DNA of 64,000 bases from positions 2,720 through 66,719 of the forward strand of contig NMRA01000320.1 of assembly GCA_002633005.1 (NCBI GenBank), written 5' to 3'. Shown piece after piece: positions 3,290-56,500 of this stretch; position 1 is the first letter of the stretch; each line of letters starts with the position of its first letter. The notes below the pieces were generated by a model. That model made no database searches, had not been told where the DNA came from, and saw only the letters and a program-made list of their open reading frames with translations. The position numbers and the translations under genes were made by a program. This DNA is from Phoronis australis. Its lineage: Eukaryota > Animalia > Phoronida.

Positions 3290-3442
3290 AGACATCGTTT
3301 GTTTTAACCTTGAGCATGCGCGTTGAAATCTACCAGCAGAAAGTGGAACATCAACTGTTCAAAGCGTCTGATTTTACGATTTCTGGTTTATAAAAAGCAA
3401 GACGAGTAAAGACGACAGCTGATTCTCCGGACGGGCTTTTTG
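3290..3442 (+). promoter_or_regulatory. Candidate DGCR8 promoter / non-coding first exon
   Basis: CpG-richer stretch, NRF1-like GCATGCGC at 3314-3321, strong donor TG|GTAAGA at 3443; start boundary approximate, no transcript evidence. Confidence 0.35.
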
Positions 3443-5396
3443 GTAAGATTTTTTGTGCTTTGACCACGAATTTCTTGCGAACTGGGTGAAGCAGGACACC
3501 GGGAATGGTGTTGGGAGAAAGAACAATTCCTCATGCCATGGTTTGTTGAACCTCTTTTTGTGCTGGGAGTAATATTATAGTCCTAGGTTTTGTGTAAATT
3601 TATTGAGTTTTGTGTTTCCTATGGACGGCTGAAGTGAAGCACCCGTGGAATTTCTAGTCGGGAGTGTCATACCTTGCAGTATTATATAGTGTATTGGGGA
3701 CGATCAGAAGCTGAGGACGCCTGTGGCTGTGCCTGTGAGTGTGGGGAGGACAATCAAAACTGAAAAAGTAGGTGGTTCTCCATATCTGCCTCTCTATGTA
3801 AAACCCACATCGGTAAATTACCTGATTTCAGACTTTAAAGTTAACTATAAGACAATTTGTGTTATAAATCGTTTCCTTGGTCTTTATAAGTTTGTAATCT
3901 TTTTGTCACGAATTATCGCTGATAAATAACTTTTTGTAAGTTTTTTAGCACACGATTTTCCGCCATGCTATCAGCTTTCGAAAAAGTGCCTCTTGTTCCT
4001 CCAATCCAAAAGAGCACTATACTTTCGATTACAAATATGAAATTTGGAAAGGGTGTAGTTTAAATGTGTGTGCACCTGCTCAAGTTCTTTTCTTGAAGTC
4101 AAGGCCAAGTTTTCATGGCGTGTTTTCGATCGTCCAGAAGGCCTAATTTTGATCGGTTGGGAGATTGATGTTTTTGCAGTTGCGTAATATGCCCCCAATT
4201 TTTAGATGAAGAATTTATCACTCTTTTAATTGAGAATTATTTCATTTTCAGAAATTTTGTCAAACTGCTGCGCCTTAGTTCACTAAATCGCCGCATGTCA
4301 GTGCCACGAGCAGCTTTGTTGAAGTCCAATGGTGCCGCAACTTAGCCGTTCAAAACAAAATTGTTACTAAGACTTTTTGTTGCTTAGATGATGAAATCCT
4401 TCTTGTTAAGAGTGGTTTATTTTCCCAAATGGTCTTTTGTGTACTGTCTGATATTTTTTGCCATGATACGATCTGATAGTACATAGGTGGGGCAGCACTG
4501 AAAAAAGTGGGGCTATAGCCTCCCCCAGCCCCCTATCAGGCTATGATGTGCTGCCCATGTAGTAATACTCTGGGGCAGATCCAGGATTTTTTGTTAGGAG
4601 GGGAGGGGGTGGCCAGGGCAGAGTATTAGGCAGGATTTTACTCATAAGGTATTTGCACCTTCGAACTGCCAAATGAAATCTTGGGGAGTTTTAGGGGGGA
4701 GAGGCCATGGCCCCTTGCCCCCCCTTCCAAATCCACCAATGTTATCTTTTGGTATGATGTGAAATTTCGTCCTAGCTCAGGTGTATTTATTTCTAAGCTT
4801 ATGTGTTGTCTTTGCTCTTTTCCTTTTAAGCTGTGTAATCCATTGTTTTCATCAGACATGAGGTTGATGCTCCTGTTCCATATGCTAACAACACACTTAA
4901 ACCGCAATATCTGTGCAGAAATCGATCCAAATTGTATATAATACACACCACCATGTTCGTCTCAATGAGACAAATCTTTTGATATGCAGCACATATACTT
5001 TTATTTTTTACGAAATTATGTAGAAAGGCAGATATTTTACGCATAATCGTCGCATTTCAACGGCCATTTTCTCGGTTACTGCTCACCCAATTTTTATGAT
5101 TTTTACACCATTTCATTTCTCACACCAAGGGCTTTTCAAAAATGTATGACACATGGGCATTGTAAAAAAATTAAAAACGTCCTCCCTACAGTAGACACTG
5201 GTGACTTAAAGTCGTGAATATAGGCATAAAAAGCAGCTGATTGTCATACTACCCAATTTCCGTTAGCAACTGCTCATGTGATGTCATGGACATATATCAG
5301 TCTTCACAAATATATGTGTTTTGACAATCTTATCCCTTATTTGTCTCCGTAAGCAGAGTTTTGAAACGGTCACTGATATCGCCGACCATTTTGAAT

Positions 5397-6001
5397 GAGG
5401 CCCTAAAGTTGTGACCGTTTCGTTTAGACGAAAATACACGGAAGTAAGACCACACAAATCAACTACAGTGCTTACAGTTACTCTAGACGACATAAAAACG
5501 CATTGCATTAATTGTTTATTAATTCAGTTTCAATTGAAATAAATTGTTATGTCTTTTGCACCCAACTTCGATGTGCACAGACATTTTCAATGAGGTTATC
5601 TACGTAAAACACTAAGAACCCAGCATCAGTTATCTCTCTATTTTATTGCATTGGCCTTACAAAACTTGGTCGACTGTGGGACATTTTGATACATTATTCA
5701 AGCCACCCCTGGAGCGCGTGTTACAGGAAATCTGAATGATGTTTAGTTTCGAAAATATATTCTGAAAATGCACAAAAAAGTGGATTAGTGAAATATGCTG
5801 TTTTTAAGATGCATTTGTAAAAAGAAGCCACCCACTCACTGTATTGTGAATATCAACACGTCTTGGTATTCGTTTGACGTTTGTAAGCAAACAAACACTG
5901 GAAACTTCAACGCTAGATGTCGCGTGACCGCACAGAAACAGAAATAAGTTCACAACTTTAGGGCACTCATGACTTAAGGGCACTCACGACTTTAGGACCT
6001 C
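5397..6001. mobile_element. MITE with GAGGYCCTAAAGTYGTGA TIRs and 17-bp subterminal repeats
   Basis: GAGGCCCTAAAGTTGTGA / TCACGACTTTAGGACCTC; three TCACAACTTTAGGGCAC-like repeats at 5950-6001. Confidence 0.55.
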
Positions 6002-6035
6002 TGATGGTACTATGGGGTTATTCCCTTCACTGACT

Positions 6036-6511
6036 TCAGCAAGAGTTGACAGTACCACCGTTACAGCTGGCCACAGTAGAGATGGTAGTCATCCCTTTGG
6101 CCCTCCATATGCTGAACGTTTTTCAGCAAATTATGCCTCACATTAATTAAGCCATCAAAGGCGCGTTGTTATAACTACCTTTTGCACACAGAGGGACACC
6201 TTAGAGGTCCACTGATGTCTTTAACTTTTCACAACTCAAACACATGTGGGCAACTGAACAAAGGACTGTTAGAATAGTTTGATTGTGGAGTATTTGTTTG
6301 AGCTGTGAAAAGTGAAAAAGGTAGACATCGACGTCCTCCTAAGGTATCCCTCTATGCACAAAAGGTATTTATTGCAACATGACATTGATTGCTTAATTAA
6401 TGTGAGGAACAATTCACCTAAAAGCGTCTGGGATATGGAGTGCTTATAGGATGACTACCATCTCTACTGCAGCCTGTTGAGACGGTGATATTGTCTACAG
6501 CAAGAGCTGAA
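6036..6511. repeat. Long imperfect inverted repeat (foldback, arms about 200 bp)
   Basis: CAGTAGAGATGGTAGTCATCC / GGATGACTACCATCTCTACTG, CCTCACATTAATTAAGC / GCTTAATTAATGTGAGG, CTTTTCACAACTCAAACA / TGTTTGAGCTGTGAAAAG nested symmetrically. Confidence 0.9.
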
Positions 6512-7900
6512 AAGAGGTAATCAGTCGAAGCAAATCGACCTTGGTTAATTTTTAATTTTTGCGGTCAATCCTAGTAATTTTTGCACTCTATTCCATGGTA
6601 CTTAATTGGAATTTCCCTGTTTGATATTTTTCCCCTGATAACTTTCTGAAATTCGTTCCCCCAAGTTAGAGAACTTCTTCAGATTCAAAGAATTTTTTCT
6701 CACGTTAGCATCACGAGAATTCACGCCATCGGTAGAAATTCTCCCAATTTGAGAAGCTGCTTCTGCTGCCGAACTGAGCAAAGACCGATTGAAGCGAAGA
6801 AGTTCAAGAGCCAAATCTCAAGACCTCACAATTTTAGTATTTGTATTTATGGTCTCAGATCTGGAAAACTTGTCAGTGGAACAGGCTGCAGATCTCAGCA
6901 ACAGTCCTGCTCTTAGCATCCTGAAATTTACCCTCAGCAACACTCCCTGTGGCTGTACCTGGGACTGGAATTTGTCTTCAGCTACACTCTTCCTGTGTTC
7001 TGGGTCTACCAGGGCTAGACCATCACCCTCTCCATCTGATTTGTGTACATGTTCACCTAACTGATGTCAAGCAGAGCTGTAGGAGGCTGTCTTGAGGGAA
7101 ATAACAGGGCACTTGACACTAGGAGGTCTCTGGGACAACTAGCAGGTGGCCCCTTTTCTAATAAAATGGGAGCAATACAAAGACTTCTTGTAATCATTCT
7201 CATCAATTGCTATGTGGCCGATTAGTTAAAATGCCACACCCTGCATTAGGCTCTTAATTCAGGGATCTCAGGATCTATTCCTGCTTAGACCCATAAGTAT
7301 TATACTTACTGCTTTTTCAACGCCTTTCATATTATTTAAAAGTTGTCTGAGTTACTGCATGAATGTGACTGAAGTGGGTCAGTTCAGTGGATTGCCTTTA
7401 CGGTGCCACTGTGGTTTTTGTAATGCATTGCGGGTTGGTTGTCAGCTTGTAAATAACCAATGAGGTCGCATACCTTGTGGATATGTTAACTGATTTATAG
7501 TTTATTTTAAAAGGTAGAGATTTACCATCACCGTGATTGGGTGGTGCGTGCTTTAATGATCTCTCGAGCAAAAGATTTGCTGTGTGTTTTAATTTGATGC
7601 ATTTTGAGGCTCACTTTCAGTCTTTTATTGTTGATGGTTGCTTAGCCGTTCTGGCGTCAAAAAGCAGTGAGCCTGTGCTTTCAATCCTGGTGCGCTCGAT
7701 TGACCACTCACCAGTTTTGTTTTGCGTCAGTCACCAAATTATCTGTGATATCACTAGATGTTTAAGATCCGATGAAAGAGCCACATTGCATTTGAAAAAC
7801 TACAACACAGCCGTATATGAAATGCCCTGAATTTTTTGCTTTGTCAATAACTTGTTTTACCTTTGTAGGCTCTGCAGCAACAACAAGAGGTCGGAAAGAG

Positions 7901-8002
7901 GGGTGTGCATTACTGACTGTTGGTGTAGTGGGTGATGAAGTCAATTTGACCAATACATTCATCATCTCAGCACTTAGTCGTTTAATGCATATATTGACCA
8001 GC
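7901..8002 (+). ncRNA. pri-miRNA-like hairpin in putative DGCR8 5' UTR (candidate Microprocessor substrate)
   Basis: Arms GTGTGCATTA-C-TGACTG-TT-GGTGT-AGT-GGGTGATGAA and TTCATCATCT-CA-GCACT-TAGTCG-TT-TAATGCATAT pair over about 32-35 bp with G-U wobbles on the + strand, 18-nt loop, CAGC (CNNC) at 7999. Confidence 0.6.
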
Positions 8003-8122
8003 TGTACTTCTGAACTTTGCACAGTAGTTAGACAATATACAATCTCTCTTAAAACTCACTAAGTCTTTCCCTTGCACTGTCATTTACACTAGTCTGGGGA
8101 AAGTCTTAGGTTCCAGTGCATA

Positions 8123-8482
8123 ATGCCAAAGCGTAAAAGTAGAAGGGGTTGTAGAACTACAAGCACTAGCAGCCTTGACAGTGTGGAATTGGAACCTGTG
8201 CCAACGACTGAACTTGCGTCCAATCCAACAAATGAACGATTGGCCTCGGTTGTTGACGTTGGTGGGTGTGATTCCATGGTTGTTGATGGTTGTCATAGTG
8301 ACGAGCCCGCTGTTAAAAAACCCAGATCTGCTGAGGAGACAGAGAGTAATGATGTGGTTAACGGAGGCGTGGCCGAGGAGAGTGTGGAGGATGAAGGAGA
8401 CGGGGGAGGTAACGGACCTGTACTAGAGATTGTGGATGAGAGTAAAGACAGCGATGCTTCAGAAGCCGAGTCAGATGCAGAG
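8123..8482 (+). CDS. DGCR8: DGCR8 coding exon 1 (acidic N-terminus)
   Basis: ATG at 8123, open acidic ORF, donor AG|GTAAGT at 8483 in phase 0 matching the next exon. Confidence 0.75.
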
Positions 8483-11400
8483 GTAAGTTCTAGGTACTGA
8501 TGTCATTGTTGACCATCAAGTGATTATGGTCTTCTTGGGTGGGAAAGGTGCTGATGAGCTCTGGTATGTTTTTGTATGTAACTAAAAGCCACATACCATT
8601 ATCCTTTTTTGACGCACAAGTTGAAGGAGACGTGAAACTTTTAGATGTGTACCAATTTGATTTAGACCACATACTAGTCTCCAAGTTTTGTCAGTCAAAT
8701 TAGATGGGATTTCTGGGCTTGGACGAGGCTCTCCCAGTTAGCTTGTCTATGCTACGAGCGTGGTGTTAAGTCTAAACAAACTGTAAAGTTATTTCTCGTC
8801 TCAGTAAGAAACCAGTGTTTTATAGAGGTGACTACTCTAAATCAAGTAAGTTTCTTGGTAGTAATGTAAGTGTATGGCTGTTTTAATCATTTATGTAGAT
8901 ATAGTCACATGTCGGCGCTTTCTGTCCATGAAAGATGTGTAGCAATCATTGTGTATGGTGCCATATGTGTCTGTTTTGTTGCTAAAATGTGTAATGTTCG
9001 TTTTTCTTATTTCTGGGTTAAAGTATATATTTTACAGTCATTGATTAGGTCTTAAAATCGCGGAATCTAGGCCTCTTAAGTGCTCAGTAATGACATATCT
9101 TTCCAGTAATCAAAGTTTGTTTTTGGTATATGTCCCGCACCAAATTAAACTTACTAGAGACGTCACATTGTGATGATAAAGCGGGACTGAATAAGCGTAT
9201 CTAAACAGACCCCTATGATTTGGACCACACGGGCAAATTGACCTGAAATGAATCCCGTCTTACTGGAAGATTTCCCTTTCCTGTCTGCATGAGCTTCATT
9301 TCCAGGAAAGTGATGACTATGATGAATACATGGACGCGGATGAAATAGACGCCCTTCTTGATCAAGGCATGGCTGACTACAAGAAGGCTGAGTCTGGTCC
9401 TCGGGCTCCTATTGAGAAAGAGAAAGTAGTTCTTATTGGTATGTTATATCACTATTTACCTTATTGTTTTGATCAATGAAGATGTAAGGTTTTGGTGTTT
9501 TTGTGTTGTTTGGATGATATCATATAGGGTTTGGTGTTTGAATATTTAGGCTTTCAATACTCTGCAAAGTAAGGGTTGGCAAGCCTTCATGTTTTTCAAT
9601 TTATGCAGTAGGTTATGCTATTTAATATCTGTTGTGAGGAAGTTAAAGACCAAAGACTTGTGTGTATGTAGTGTTATTATTTGGAGTTATTGTTTCTGTA
9701 TAGTGGATGTTGTACCCTGTTTCTTTAGTCAATAGCCAAAAATCACCACAATCAGACAAAATGACCTGGAATTGTTCGATGTGCCGTCATGGTGTGAAAA
9801 TTCCTTCCAGATATTTTTTACATGCGTTGTATTTCTGATGTTGGAGTCGCAGTAATGTCCTGCAGCTGAGTACTTATCAACTGGTTGTGTTTACAGAGAA
9901 AGTGAGTAATCCATTTGAGGTGCTGCCAGATGGTTGGGTACTCGTCTCCCATAACAGTGGAATGCCTGTCTACCTGCACAAAGAGTCGCGTGTGTGCACG
10001 CTGTCCAAGCCTTATTTCCTGGGTTCAGGCTCTGCAAGGGTGAGAATAATTGCATGTTTAGTAAACGTGTGTATGTGCGTTGGATTCCTCTTCATCAGAA
10101 TTGTATTAATTAAAAGTTTGGTTATACTATTATAAGCTAAGAAAACTTATCAGAACAGTATTAATTAAAACTTTGGTTATACCATTATAAGCTAAGAAAA
10201 CTCAAAGATCTCAAAATCTCTGACAATGCATTATATCGTATCCATAAACTTGGCTTTCAATGCTTTTCATTTGTGCCAAATGTTGATAAAGGGGACCGTT
10301 TTTATATTGGTATACATTTTCAAATTGGTTTAATTCCTAAGATAGTTCGAAATTTGATTGGTAGGACCCTAACCCTTCTCTGCTTACGTTCAGAGCTATG
10401 AACTGTGCATTCGCCGAATTTTGGTACTTCCTGCGGACTATTTCTGGTTTTTTACTTTTTTCAGAGATTTATTTTTGATGTTTTTGCTCACTTTCCCAAA
10501 TGGGGGGTTGGTTCGAGCCCCCCTCTGGGCGTGCGCATGAATTCAGTGACTTACAAGTAGAATACAGTACTTGTGAATTGATCACAAGTTCTAGTATTGT
10601 GTAGTGCCTTTGTACTTTAGCACTTGATGTTGTGGCTGTTTCAGAAACATGCCATACCTGTCAGTGCCATTCCATGTCTTGAGTACAAGAAGGCTGTGGA
10701 AAAGGAAAAGGAAGAACAAGAGGACAAAAAGGGTAATGTGATGGATCAACGTTGTGCGCATGGGAGCCCCAGGTTTCACGAACCTCCGTGTCGCCTTAAG
10801 GTTATGTAGTACCCTGGAAAAATGTCCAACTTTGGCCAACTTTGGAATGGAGTTTCTCAGAAATGGCTGATCAGATTCACATGAAACTTTCGTATTCTAT
10901 GCTTTATACACTGTTCTTGGATATGGTGTTAGGAATTGTTTTTTAAATGTTCCATGTTTGCATGAGTGGCAGTAATTAGCAATACACTTAATCACAAGCA
11001 CATGTGATGTTTAACGTACTGCCATATAGTCTTAAACAAGCAAGTATTGTGACTAAAAGACCATTTAAAACTGCTGTGAGTAGGGAGAGACTTAATACTT
11101 GCACCCAGTGATTGGGAGAATACTCCGCTTCAAGATTTTGAGGAACATATTCCGAAATCTTTCCACATTAAGTCCTTGAATTACAGTTTGTGTATAGGTG
11201 TTGTGTTACTACTGTTCCTATATAATAAGAAATTAAGAAACTGGGTGCAGAAAAACTCAGTGGCATTACTCATAATCCAAATCCAGTGGCTGGACTCAAA
11301 GCTACGACCTGTGATCATGAACTGATGTGCTGATTAGTGGTTGTATTGATGGATCTGACCATTGGGTCATTTCTCCACCCTGAGGAGGTGTAATGGAGAC

Positions 11401-40200: not shown

Positions 40201-40403
40201 GGCTGAATTAGGATGCAAGTTTCCGAAAGAGCCCACCAATTTCTCTGAGAGACCCTCTGGGCTCTTTTAGAATGCACAGTAAGTTGGGTTAACTGAAAGT
40301 TTCCAAAATCCCCTGTAATAGGAATCTGTTCGTGGTTGCAATCACTTTGGCTCCAAGACTGCAGAACACAATTCAAATTGGGTGGTTATGGTGAACACGA
40401 TCA

Positions 40404-41891
40404 CTAAAAACTTGCGTGTTTTCTACTATGGACAACCAGATAAGCTTTCTGAGTAAATGACTTCCCACACACCTGACAACTGTATGGTCTCTCACCGGTG
40501 TGAGTTCTTTTGTGGATAACAAGGCCGCGCTGCGTAGCAAATGCCTTTCCACACTCACAGCAACTGTATGGTCTCTCGCCCGTATGTGTTCTTCTGTGAG
40601 CAACGAGATAACACTTCTGAGTAAACGACTTTTCACAATCCTCACAATTGTATGGCCTCTCACCTGTGTGATCCCTAGTGTGAACAATAAGACTACCTTG
40701 TGTTTGAAATGACTTTCCGCATTCACTGCAGCGGTATGGCCTCTCACCCGTGTGTGTTCTCCTGTGATCAACCAGATAACATTTTTGTGCGAAAGACTTT
40801 CCACACTGGGAACACTGGTATGGCCTCTTGGCAATGTGTGACCTGCTGTGGATGACAAGACTGCGTTGCGATTTAAATGACTTTCCGCATTCACTACAGC
40901 TGTATGGCCTCTCACCAGTGTGTGTTCTCCTATGATTAATTAGGTAACGCAATTGTAAAAATGACTTTCCACACTCAGAACACTTATATTTCCCCACACT
41001 GTCATGTGTTCTCCTATGAACAATGAGGTTCCCTTGTGTTTTAAATGACATTCTGCATTCGCTGCAGCTATATGGCCTCTCACCAGTGTGTATTCTCTCA
41101 TGATCGATCAGACAAGAATTTCGACTGAATGACTTTTCACAATATGAACAGCTGTATGGCTTCTCACCAGTGTGTTGCCTGGTGTGAAAAACAAGACTAC
41201 GACGTGCTTTAAATGACTTCATACATATACTACAACTATATGGCTTCTCACCAGTGTGCTTTGTCATGTGTTCCACCAGGTGACCTTTTTGAATGAAAAA
41301 CTTGCCACACTCCAAACATCTGTGTGACCTCTTCTTTTCATAGTGCATTTTGCTATGTTCAGAGAGATCCCATTTTCTCTTAAACGACTTTCCACATTCA
41401 AAACAGCTGAAGCGTCTTTCATCGGTGTGTGTTAACATGTGTTTTTCAAAACAAGCTAAGTCACCAAACACTTCACCGCAGTTACTACAGAGAAGCTGGA
41501 CTTGAGATTTCATGCAGGTCACTAGATACTGCCCACGCACATTAGCTTCTGGCAAATCGCCTACAAATCCCTTGGTAACAGGAGACACATTTCTCATGGA
41601 TGACCCATCACGTAAATCACTAACAGCATCACTGTCCAGAGTAATGTCATCATAACACTCCAGCTTAAACTCAGCAGGCTGAAACATATTCTGCACACTA
41701 CAACAGACTACTTCATGGTCAGGTCCTTCGTTAAGTTCCTGTTTGATTACTGGCTCTATATAGCTACCAATGTTGACGTTGCCGCTGGGACATCCAGAAA
41801 CAGCATTGCAACAAGCATCGTACTGTTTTTTGTGATAGGTCAAAGTTTCACAAGGTTCCTGTTTTATGTAAGGTACACCATAACTTTCCAT
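40404..41891 (-). CDS. C2H2 zinc-finger protein, 13 tandem fingers, 495 aa
   Basis: 13 CxxC-x12-HxxxH fingers, mostly with TGE[KR]PY linkers; N-terminal IKQE/FKLE SUMO-type motifs; splice acceptor 8 nt upstream of ATG implies a non-coding 5' exon. Confidence 0.93.
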   Translation of the reverse strand: MESYGVPYIKQEPCETLTYHKKQYDACCNAVSGCPSGNVNIGSYIEPVIKQELNEGPDHEVVCCSVQNMFQPAEFKLECYDDITLDSDAVSDLRDGSSMRNVSPVTKGFVGDLPEANVRGQYLVTCMKSQVQLLCSNCGEVFGDLACFEKHMLTHTDERRFSCFECGKSFKRKWDLSEHSKMHYEKKRSHRCLECGKFFIQKGHLVEHMTKHTGEKPYSCSICMKSFKARRSLVFHTRQHTGEKPYSCSYCEKSFSRNSCLIDHERIHTGERPYSCSECRMSFKTQGNLIVHRRTHDSVGKYKCSECGKSFLQLRYLINHRRTHTGERPYSCSECGKSFKSQRSLVIHSRSHIAKRPYQCSQCGKSFAQKCYLVDHRRTHTGERPYRCSECGKSFQTQGSLIVHTRDHTGERPYNCEDCEKSFTQKCYLVAHRRTHTGERPYSCCECGKAFATQRGLVIHKRTHTGERPYSCQVCGKSFTQKAYLVVHSRKHASF

Positions 41892-42734
41892 GGCTCAGCC
41901 TGAAAGTGGAAAAGACAACAGACAAAGATTAAGAGCACAGTGTACCTAAGTATAAGTCCTCTACACTTATCACTAAATAGTAAATGATAATTCAATATCT
42001 AGGCTCGTGCTAGCCGCTAGCTAGCGTCGATTTCTAAGTGGCAATGGTGATGGTAGAGCTAGGTCCATTCGGCAACTTGGCGAAGGCTTTTACAACTTGA
42101 CAATTAAAATTAATTTCGGGAAACCTACTCGCGTGTCAATTCACAGTCAGCTTGAATCAAGTCGCGCCGCAAATGACATTCTTACTTCGACTCAGAGCCC
42201 TAAAAATAAAAAGCGAATGTTCCATTTCATGTCCCTCACCCCCCCCCTGAAATCACTCTTTTACCGCAACGAAATGTTCAACCGTGTAGGGGGGAGGGGG
42301 GAAGGAGGGGTGCTACTTGTCGTCTGCAAGAAACAATGTCAGGACTATTTCTGAGGCGGCCGAAAGAAAGCACGGTAAAGCAAATGTCAATTTCTTACTT
42401 AATGAATTTTATGTTCACTACTCTACATGATTTAGCTTTATTTTGTTATGTTAATGTTTTTGGACCTAAATGTCTTACTCATCAAAATGACCGCGAGAGT
42501 GGCATATCCTCATCGTAACCCAGGGATAAGGGGAATCCCTACCCAATTTTTTCAGGTCAAAATCAATGAAATGCATAACTTGGGGATAGGGGCAACCACT
42601 GCCCGATTTTTTGGGTCAACATCAATGAAATGCCCATGTGGCCGACGTATCCACACTGTAACCCAGGGACAGGGGGTAACCTACCCATTTTTTAGGTCAA
42701 CATCATGCCCATGTGGGCGGCATACCCCTGCCGN

Positions 42735-53500: not shown

Positions 53501-56500
53501 TATTTGACAATGCCTTGAGTGAACGGTTTCATACGAACAATGTCACCCTCTTGTAATGGCTCGAGGTCTTTCGCCTTCTTGTCATAATGCTCAACTTGTT
53601 TGATCTGTGAGGACTTACGCTGGGCACGCACTTTGTCTAAATCGATCTCCTGAGGTTCAAGTAGTCTTTTTTGTCATGGGTAGAAGCGTTTTCATGCGTC
53701 TGGACATTAGTCTCTGAGCGGGGCTGGTGTCGTATCCTTGACTTGGTGCGTTATGCTTGTCTAAGAGTGCTAAGTAGAAATAACCTCCTGATTCATATAT
53801 TTTCGTGATGAGCTGTTTTAAGCTTTTAACTGTAGACTCTGCCTTACCATTTGACCGACTATGGCATGGACTCGACGTAACATGCTCAAACTCCCAAGAT
53901 GACGAGAACAGCTTGAAGTCCTGCCAAGAGAATTGGGGTCCATTGTCCGAGATTACCACATCTGGAACACCATATCGAGCAAAATGCGTTTTCAGCTTGC
54001 GAATCACAGTTAAGGAACTTGTGTTGTCGATATGATCGATTTCGATGAAGTTGCTGTAATAGTCAACAATTGCAAAGAAATCACAATTGTGTAGACTGAA
54101 CAAGTCTACTCCAACCTTTGCCCATCGACGATTGGAAACATCATGTGGTACCAGAGTTTCTCTTTGATTGGATGTCTCGAACTGACGGCAAACAGAACAC
54201 TTCTCAATGTAATCTTTGATCTCCGAGTTCATGTGGCCAAAAAGACATTCTCGGGCTCTTCTAAGACAACCTTCAGTGCCTGTGTGAGATGAGTGGTTCT
54301 TCTCTTTCATAGTCTGGCGTTGACAGTGTGGAATAATTATTCGTTCTTCACGAAACATCAGACCATCTTGGACAGAAATCTCATCTTTGTGAGGGAAGTG
54401 CGGTAAGACACTTTGTGGTAAATTGCTCTTTTCGGCAGGCCATTCTGAGAGCACTGTTTCCTTCAGGCAAGGCATCAGCTGTCGTAGCTTCTCTCAGAAT
54501 ATTCAGTCGTCGTGTGGTCACACGTAAGTTGTCTATGTGGCTCACGTGATCAAATGAATCACTGTGGTCATCACTCTGGATAAATGCTTGGGAGAGTGTC
54601 AGATAGAAACACCTTGCCTTTGTGACACACTATATCTGTGTTGTAGTGTTGGAGCCGGATAAGCATGCTTTGCAATCTCTTGGGTGCTTTTGCGAGGGGC
54701 TTCTTAACGATATTTTCTAATGCCTCATGATCACTTTGGACAGTGACGGGGCGTCCGTAAGTGAACTGATGAAAACGCTCAACAGCATATACTATGGCCA
54801 GCCTTTCCTTTTCTGTTTGGGCATAATGATGCTCAGTTTCACTGAGGGGTATGCTAGCATATGCTAATGACTGTCCATCTTGTAAGAGAGCTGCTCCTAG
54901 TTCCTTGTCGCTAGCATCACATTGTACTACAATGGGCTTGTTGGGCTGGTAGTACCTGAGGACGGGTGTATGACAGGCTAACTTCTTCACTTCTTGGAAG
55001 GCCTTTTCTTGAGTTTCAGTCCATTGCCATTGTACATCGGTTTATGTCAATTGACAGATGGGCTCCATGACATCAGCGAGTCGTGGCCATCATGTAAAAA
55101 TACGTTTTGCCACAACAACAGCGTGAGGTAGCAGCCAGACGTTCATTCACTTGGTAGTCACCGTGTTTGTTGTTAACTCTACAACTAACCGCTATGTGGT
55201 CTTAATAAAACAAGGAACAACTATCATAACATAACAGTTGTTAAGCCCTTGCACTGCCAAGTTTTTAGGACAGCATTTCCCAGTGCCAATTAAGTTTTGA
55301 GGAAACTTAGAATAATAGGGTGCTGTCATGAAAAATGCTGTAAATTGTCCTTTGTTGGTGGATTGTTATGAAACGTTCAAGGTAAGATGTATGTACATTG
55401 TTCTATGGAATTTTGAAAGTATAACATCGTACATAAATCCAGGTGTTTGCCAGGTAGATTTCAGGTGAAAATTCGTACAGTCAATGAAGGGTTTGGGTTG
55501 AAATACATACCCTGGCCCTGCTACATACCTCATCAGCCTCTTTAGACTTGGATCCCAATTATTTTGAATTTTAGTCAATTAAACATGAGATTTGGTATTA
55601 CGAGCATCCTTTCGTCTGATGATGTTATTAAAAATGTAGTTGTCTCCCATTAAATATAAAATTATCTAGGTCTAGAACATATTCGTAGTCAGCTTGCTAA
55701 CTGGTGTGTTTAGCAGTGAAGGATAAGTCACGGAAAGGTGCATTTGGCAGTGAAAGATTTACCATAAAAATTTTAAAAGTCAACTTGCCTTATCAAAAAA
55801 ACCGAGACTTTGTAATGCAATTACAAGTACATTTTCAAAGAGGTGGTGTCTATTCGATTGTGTAACACTGGCTCGTGTGTACAGAAGCAATTTGTATGTG
55901 AATTTATGTCAACAGATTCTATGAATTATTATGAATGGTATCATGTGGTTGATTTGATTTATCATGCATGGTTGATCATCAATTGTAATAGTTTATATAA
56001 TTTTTTTATTGCTGACAAGTGATAAGTTATCAAAAGAGGTTTTCCACGAATGATATTATGAATGCTGATCAGACTTGCATAAAGCTGATTATCTTCTATC
56101 ATCAGTCTGATATGACTTCATATCAACTAAAATTGGCTTGAAGGATCCAGATTACTATCTGTATGAATACGTAGAATATTAAGGACAGTCTTATTATTCA
56201 GCATTTCTAGTACATTCGTGCGGTGTTTGGAAATATGACAGCTAATGCCTTCGGTGAACAAAAACCTAGACTCTTTCCTGGAAATAGTTTTAGAAAGAGG
56301 GTCCTTATCGTGGTACCAACGTTTTTTAAATCTCCATTGTGATTGATGTTGAGTGTTCACAGGTGACTATGATTACTGAGGGTCAAAATTACTGTTGTAT
56401 TTTCATTGTATTACAGAACTCAGACAGTTATATTAGTGGACCACTGGGGCTCATGCCAATTCCTTGAAAAAACTCTGAAGGATCCTGCCAGTTTTGTTAA

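Follow-up and report, generated by a model that had tools for sequence, protein, structure and literature searches.

The window, the 64,000-nucleotide stretch of DNA analysed here, carries the gene for DGCR8, as the original prediction held. The WW/haem-binding exon (Table 1) matches the PDB structure 3le4_A with an E value of 1.7e-17, and the frame at 9897-10039 has 127 homologues among 129 candidates, the named ones being DGCR8/Pasha and the others uncharacterised. A tblastn search with 10 full-length homologues against the window places colinear exons from 9.3 to 27.2 kb, in which two dsRBDs and a C-terminal tail come after the WW/haem-binding region, the arrangement of DGCR8/Pasha. In a midpoint-rooted FastTree phylogeny (93 of 97 proteins and 399 columns, short or gappy rows having been dropped), the window protein clusters with named molluscs and one unnamed sequence with a support of 0.97, in a set where no deuterostome, annelid or brachiopod could be recognised by name and a nemertean protein (P0053) stands outside the tree; its identity to cephalopod proteins is 56-57%. 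This placement suggests that the animal is a lophotrochozoan, and probably a mollusc-like one.

Table 1. Features of the 5' part of the DGCR8 gene in the window (positions count from the first letter of the window)
Feature	Positions	Strand	Remarks
Non-coding exon 1, 3' part	3412..3442	+	Loose read ends at 7868 in X1 and X2 equal 3412-3441
Intron 1, GT..AG, 4426 nt	3443..7868	+	Polypyrimidine tract, AG at 7867-7868
Exon 2, 614 nt	7869..8482	+	5' UTR of 254 nt, then codons 1-120; contains hairpins A and B
Hairpin A, pri-miRNA-like stem, 31 bp, 18-nt loop	7903..7992	+	Positional equivalent of mir-3618
Predicted pre-hairpin, 69 nt	7914..7982	+	5p arm 7914-7935, 3p arm 7961-7982; inferred from geometry
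CNNC motif (CAGC)	7999..8002	+	+17 from the predicted 3' cut
DGCR8 start codon	8123..8125	+	First ATG of the frame entering the spliced WW/haem-binding exons
Hairpin B core, mir-1306-like, coding part of exon 2	8187..8271	+	Extended stem 8164-8300
WW/haem-binding exon	9897..10039	+	Match to PDB 3le4_A

Several other stretches of the window are repeated at 94-97% identity (10674-11955/11957-13246, 21844-23837/33451-35427, 28930-30983/35422-37488 and 57338-59757/61561-63946). Some of them are joined at single N letters, and the pair 10674-11955/11957-13246 doubles two DGCR8 exons; these repeats are likely to be uncollapsed haplotypes in the assembly. Two open frames on the minus strand (53660-55041 and 40376-41894) resemble remnants of a retrotransposon integrase/RNase H and a C2H2 zinc-finger gene.

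Four RNA-seq runs were aligned, of which X3 and X4 give no cover at hairpin A. In X1 and X2, stranded depth is unbroken over exon 2 (about 8-32 and 5-22, respectively), the first mate of every read over it maps to the minus strand, which is the orientation of plus-strand RNA, and the splice joint from 8482 to 9306 is carried by 26 and 14 reads. At 7868, 20 reads in each of the two runs have loose ends that match 3412-3441 exactly, and a GT donor stands at 3443, directly after exon 1, the 5' end of which is not fixed (the loose read ends have a median length of 87-90 nt). The sense cover together with these loose ends sets the boundaries of exon 2 at 7869 and 8482. The hairpin had originally been placed in an exon of about 970 nt starting after an acceptor at 7513, that is, at 7514-8482. 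The downstream part of this span, from 7869 onwards, proved exonic, but 7514-7868 has zero sense-strand cover in the four runs, the reads begin at 7869, and the proposed acceptor falls inside intron 1. The location of the hairpin in the spliced 5' UTR of DGCR8, on the sense strand, was borne out by the stranded X1 and X2 reads. A 30-nt piece within the intron (7590-7619) is covered in X1-X3 by reads of opposite orientation that are loose on both sides, and it is a match of another transcript.

Hairpin A begins 34 nt into exon 2, and its end lies 130 nt upstream of the ATG. Its arms (37 and 35 nt) have pair probabilities mostly of 0.8-1.0 and are interrupted by two internal loops (1x2 and 3x2) and a 2-nt bulge; the stem and the size of its loop (7940-7957) are as first described, but the stem has 31 bp instead of about 35, and the loop contains a 4-bp mini-stem (P 0.6-0.9). 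The fold persists in the spliced context and is better than that of shuffled controls, as had been expected, with a z score of -2.47 on the sense strand (3 of 200 shuffles as good) and of +0.57 on the antisense strand; for the surrounding region, 7895-8005, the sense z is -2.79. A stem scan of both strands (128 kb of strand) returned 136 stems of at least 27 bp. Hairpin A ranks first among them by pair probability multiplied by paired fraction, and among the three that pass a strict shape filter it leads in stability by 12 kcal/mol, both measures having been picked after hairpin A was seen. By composition-corrected energy it holds rank 12 of 6330 windows. The share of G-U pairs (8 of 31) had been read as a sign of selection on the RNA, an argument that is weak because 20 of the 136 stems reach as high a share. 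In the 5' UTR of DGCR8, hairpin A stands out as an exceptionally well-formed structure of the sense strand. Its arms contain two upstream AUGs, one at 7935 opening a frame of 4 codons and one at 7985 opening a frame of 25 codons, and both frames end before the main ATG.

Recomputation reproduced the cuts proposed at 7913/7914 and 7982/7983, which would leave 13 nt of 5' lower stem, a 2-nt 3' overhang and the 5p arm originally given; their register is uncertain by 1-2 nt, since the 1x2 loop sits at the cut. Canonical microRNA genes have at least 16 pairs between arms of 20-26 nt, with 2-nt offsets, and the predicted 5p arm of hairpin A, which starts with U, has 17 of its 22 nt paired. The CNNC is where it had been reported, but it carries little weight: the motif is found by chance at 4% of positions at exactly +17 and at 11% at +16 to +18, and the cut from which the distance is counted was placed by eye. 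Its last C is moreover predicted to be paired, in an outer helix of 7886-7894 with 8002-8011. Read depth in X1 and X2 runs through the predicted cuts without a step, and read ends do not pile up anywhere, though ordinary RNA-seq would not necessarily reveal cleavage. The search of the window against Rfam found no family at the gathering score and nothing credible at E values up to 10.

A second hairpin (hairpin B) starts 64 nt after the ATG, 195 nt downstream of hairpin A. Its z score is -2.51 on the sense strand and -1.05 on the antisense strand, so that both hairpins fold better on the sense strand, and two read variants in its extended stem preserve the fold. A and B are a neighbouring pair in which one hairpin is well formed and the other suboptimal, the arrangement expected of DGCR8/pasha feedback hairpins. 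A covariance model (R1) built from three DGCR8 loci of other invertebrates (L044, L013 and L051), from which the window was left out, has hairpin B as its top match in the 64 kb (18.4 bits, rough E value of 0.021), the next match scoring 11.3 bits; in a search of 341 kb, the window copy is the weakest member of the set at the same score (E 0.11). In direct comparisons, the window copy aligns with the mir-1306 site of L044 better than 500 of 500 shuffles (one of six tests), and, when its core was compared with 5500 tiles of all loci, the sites in L013 and L009 took ranks 1 and 2, with L044 third.

These loci come from a metagenome scan that yielded 53 DGCR8 loci from 193 candidate stretches, and hairpin B is conserved as an RNA structure among them. 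R1 also detects L003/L004 (E 5e-7) and L002 (E 9e-4), and each of these matches is in sense orientation and precedes the WW exon. Altogether, B is found in 7 of the 53 loci, 5 of them independent; many of the remaining loci have too little upstream DNA to contain it. L003 is 77-80% like bee proteins, and L013 and L002 are insect-like by their best matches. When six B sites are aligned without reference to structure, 87% of 138 cells pair (24-48% in slid controls), and RNAalifold predicts the same stem. Eight of the 23 pairs change on both sides, which is reached by 1 of 500 shuffles in a control that ignores relatedness and uses a structure taken from three of the six rows. A model of six sequences (R2) found no new member in the 53 loci, and the B motif had zero matches in the prokaryote genomes and viral contigs scanned for it.

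Model searches found no B in eight worm-like loci whose sequence takes in the first coding exon, nor in several compact arthropod-like or bivalve-like loci containing an apparent first Met. In seven of the worm-like loci, a conserved long hairpin is absent where the first coding exon begins. L016, L018, L023, L025, L032, L036, L040 and L043 make up a worm-like clade with a first coding exon of more than 2 kb and a UTR of about 58 nt, in which B was possibly lost or moved to an unseen upstream exon. Among the other structures seen in these loci are a 45-bp hairpin on the antisense strand of the bee-like locus, 333 nt upstream of B (L003 8100-8216, also in L004), and a perfect 28-bp inverted repeat between the first coding exon and the WW exon (L016 5677-5736, L017 11-70).

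Hairpin B resembles vertebrate mir-1306. The sense strand of L044 at 1595-1669 matches the Rfam mir-1306 family (RF01014) with 29.5 bits (E 3.5e-4), under the gathering threshold of 70, and the L013 site gives a faint 12.5 bits; there is no match to this family for the window (E up to 10) or for L051. Because no site reaches the 70-bit threshold, we call B mir-1306-like and not a member of the family, the tie being made by the one moderate match (L044), the one faint match (L013) and the position of the hairpin.

Structural conservation in relatives, named in the original prediction as a test of hairpin A, was thus found for hairpin B, but hairpin A has no sequence homologue among the 53 loci. 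Its arms are conserved in none of them, a BLAST search of the 5' UTR against all 53 gave nothing under E 0.87, and the likeness of its basal helix to relatives (4-8 of 14) is within background. Aligned with the hairpin of L044 it gives a p value of 0.20, or 0.01 for the 5' arms alone (one of six tests), and the L044 counterpart holds rank 1013 of 5500 tiles. Counterparts in position and shape are present in 2 of the 5 other B-bearing loci. In L013, a strong sense hairpin lies 73 nt upstream of B (z -5.55 sense, -3.48 antisense), and in L044 another lies 253 nt upstream (z -1.64 on both strands), where sequence signals point to an acceptor-like site near 1173, the hairpin at 1236-1335 and the ATG at 1551. 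In L003, L002 and L051, the 700 nt upstream of B, which an intron may interrupt, contain no A-type hairpin. Within the window, none of the 8 variant sites in X1 and X2 reads is inside hairpin A, and the four UTR variant sites of exon 2 all fall outside it, which is not significant (P 0.17-0.28). It is likely that A either is specific to its lineage or evolves fast, its shape being what is kept, and that B is the old, conserved part.

We consider it probable that A and B together are a feedback cassette, cut by Drosha-DGCR8 to lower its own mRNA, with cleavage extrapolated from vertebrates. The Microprocessor would bind the well-formed hairpin A, and cuts near the predicted positions would separate the cap from the reading frame, leading to destruction of the DGCR8 mRNA. 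Hairpin A may also serve as a helper for the poorer hairpin downstream (cluster assistance), and any small RNA released would likely be a by-product. The proposal of an equivalent of the vertebrate and fly Microprocessor site thus keeps the identity of the gene and the place in the spliced sense 5' UTR, and gives up the exon boundary, the weight of the G-U pairs and the CNNC, and a homologue for A. The second, conserved, mir-1306-like hairpin past the ATG makes the case stronger than was known when that proposal was made.

Hairpin A could instead be a stable element of the 5' UTR that lowers translation, through a block to scanning and its two upstream AUGs, or a neutral one, uncut in either case, with B, if anything, as the Microprocessor site. 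The AUGs inside the arms would fit this reading, as would the lack of sequence conservation, the 11 windows of the 6330 that fold equally well or better for their composition, and the absence of three of the four processing motifs (hairpin A has no basal UG, apical UGU/GUG or mGHG, and CNNC is the sole one present). Each of these motifs has a moderate effect by itself (PMC11701709). We regard it as unlikely, however, since in arm length, loop size and paired fraction hairpin A is the best pri-miRNA fit among the stems of the window, and it is placed as mir-3618 is relative to B and the ATG, with counterparts in L013 and L044.

Hairpin A might also be an ordinary exonic microRNA gene with a functional mature product, damage to the host mRNA being incidental. 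The pairing and the initial U of its 5p arm agree with this, and the length of the pre-hairpin is within the range given for molluscs in the accessible text of PMC11701709. It is nevertheless very unlikely: there is no Rfam family, the arms recur in 0 of the 53 loci, and the DGCR8 hairpins of vertebrates and flies are described in the consulted sources as yielding few mature reads (PMC5749182; bioRxiv 10.1101/2025.09.09.675111).

Both arms of hairpin B coincide with a short N-terminal peptide motif of DGCR8. At the protein level, this peptide occurs in scallops, oyster, mussels, abalone, cephalopods, ticks, spiders, horseshoe crabs, a sea spider, Priapulus and Lineus (the proteins include P0005, P0018, P0036, P0038, P0060, P0165, P0053 and P0179, where it lies near the N-terminus). 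A peptide profile made from L044 and 26 proteins, with the window excluded, detects L013, L009 and L051 at E values of 2-3e-4, in L013 and L009 at the same sites as the DNA tiles. It does not detect the copy of the window itself (E 8.9), and the link of the window to the peptide therefore comes from pairwise scores, DNA tiles and the RNA model; protein searches with the first exon of L044 and with exon 3 of the window gave no match. Three coding loci have an in-frame loop spacing of 21 nt, and the group of L003, L013 and L002 has spacings of 24, 35 and 32 nt. In these last three loci the reading frame across B is shifted or broken by a stop and both arms are retained, so RNA is what is conserved. 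That site B is kept for the peptide, with its RNA pairing and its association with A coincidental, is the least probable reading, for all that the motif recurs near the DGCR8 N-terminus of mollusc, chelicerate, priapulid and nemertean proteins with that in-frame spacing, because the non-coding copies largely refute it and the two conserved halves of B are complementary and covary.

Returning to the feedback cassette, hairpin B appears, on balance, to be of common descent across bilaterians. With similar caution, we lean towards the cassette being one element inherited from the bilaterian ancestor, and not a convergence between fly and mammal; mir-1306 would then have homologues in molluscs, chelicerates, priapulids and insects, B would have moved between coding and non-coding sequence and, where it is coding, imprinted the conserved peptide on a DGCR8 N-terminus that cannot otherwise be aligned, and A would have been replaced freely. 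If true, a cassette of vertebrate layout would be present in a third major animal lineage, B could be traced from insects to mir-1306, and the control of microRNA dosage, possibly with cluster assistance, would date to early bilaterians. The B model is a direct means to survey all animal genomes, and it gives exact sites for small-RNA data.

In the literature consulted, DGCR8 hairpins are reported only for vertebrates and flies, and the primary papers of 2009-2011 may show wider alignments. Compared with canonical pri-miRNAs (MirGeneDB), hairpin A has the 22-nt arms with 17 pairs, the 2-nt overhang, a lower stem of 10 bp and the CNNC at +17, but differs in having no UG, UGU/GUG, mGHG or arm conservation. 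The Drosophila pasha mRNA has two hairpins in its 5' UTR, dme_474 and dme_422 (PMC5749182). By the coordinates in Supplemental Table S4 of that paper, the upstream hairpin is lineage-restricted and its downstream neighbour has an entry for each of the 12 flies. The window shares with pasha, as far as these coordinates go, an adjacent pair of hairpins in the 5' part of the mRNA, the upstream restricted and the downstream conserved, whereas both hairpins are non-coding in flies and B is coding here. In human DGCR8, as described in the accessible text of PMC13288104 and bioRxiv 10.1101/2025.09.09.675111, two Drosha-cut hairpins in exon 2 flank the ATG, mir-3618 in the 5' UTR and mir-1306 in coding sequence. 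There, mir-3618 is the better substrate and a helper of mir-1306, and its deletion raises DGCR8 mRNA (PMC13288104; bioRxiv 10.1101/2025.09.09.675111; PMC8728216). The 2025 preprint considers the layout to be shared by vertebrates and flies, and the hairpin microRNAs not (bioRxiv 10.1101/2025.09.09.675111). The window differs from vertebrates in that B starts closer to the ATG (about 120 nt past it in human), that its own B has no Rfam mir-1306 match and A no mir-3618 match in Rfam (Rfam 15 may not contain that family), and that cleavage, proven in vertebrates according to these sources, is predicted for the window hairpins. What it shares with the vertebrate gene, as these sources describe it, is the layout itself, a non-coding exon 1 and an exon 2 with a well-formed hairpin before the ATG and a poorer one after it.
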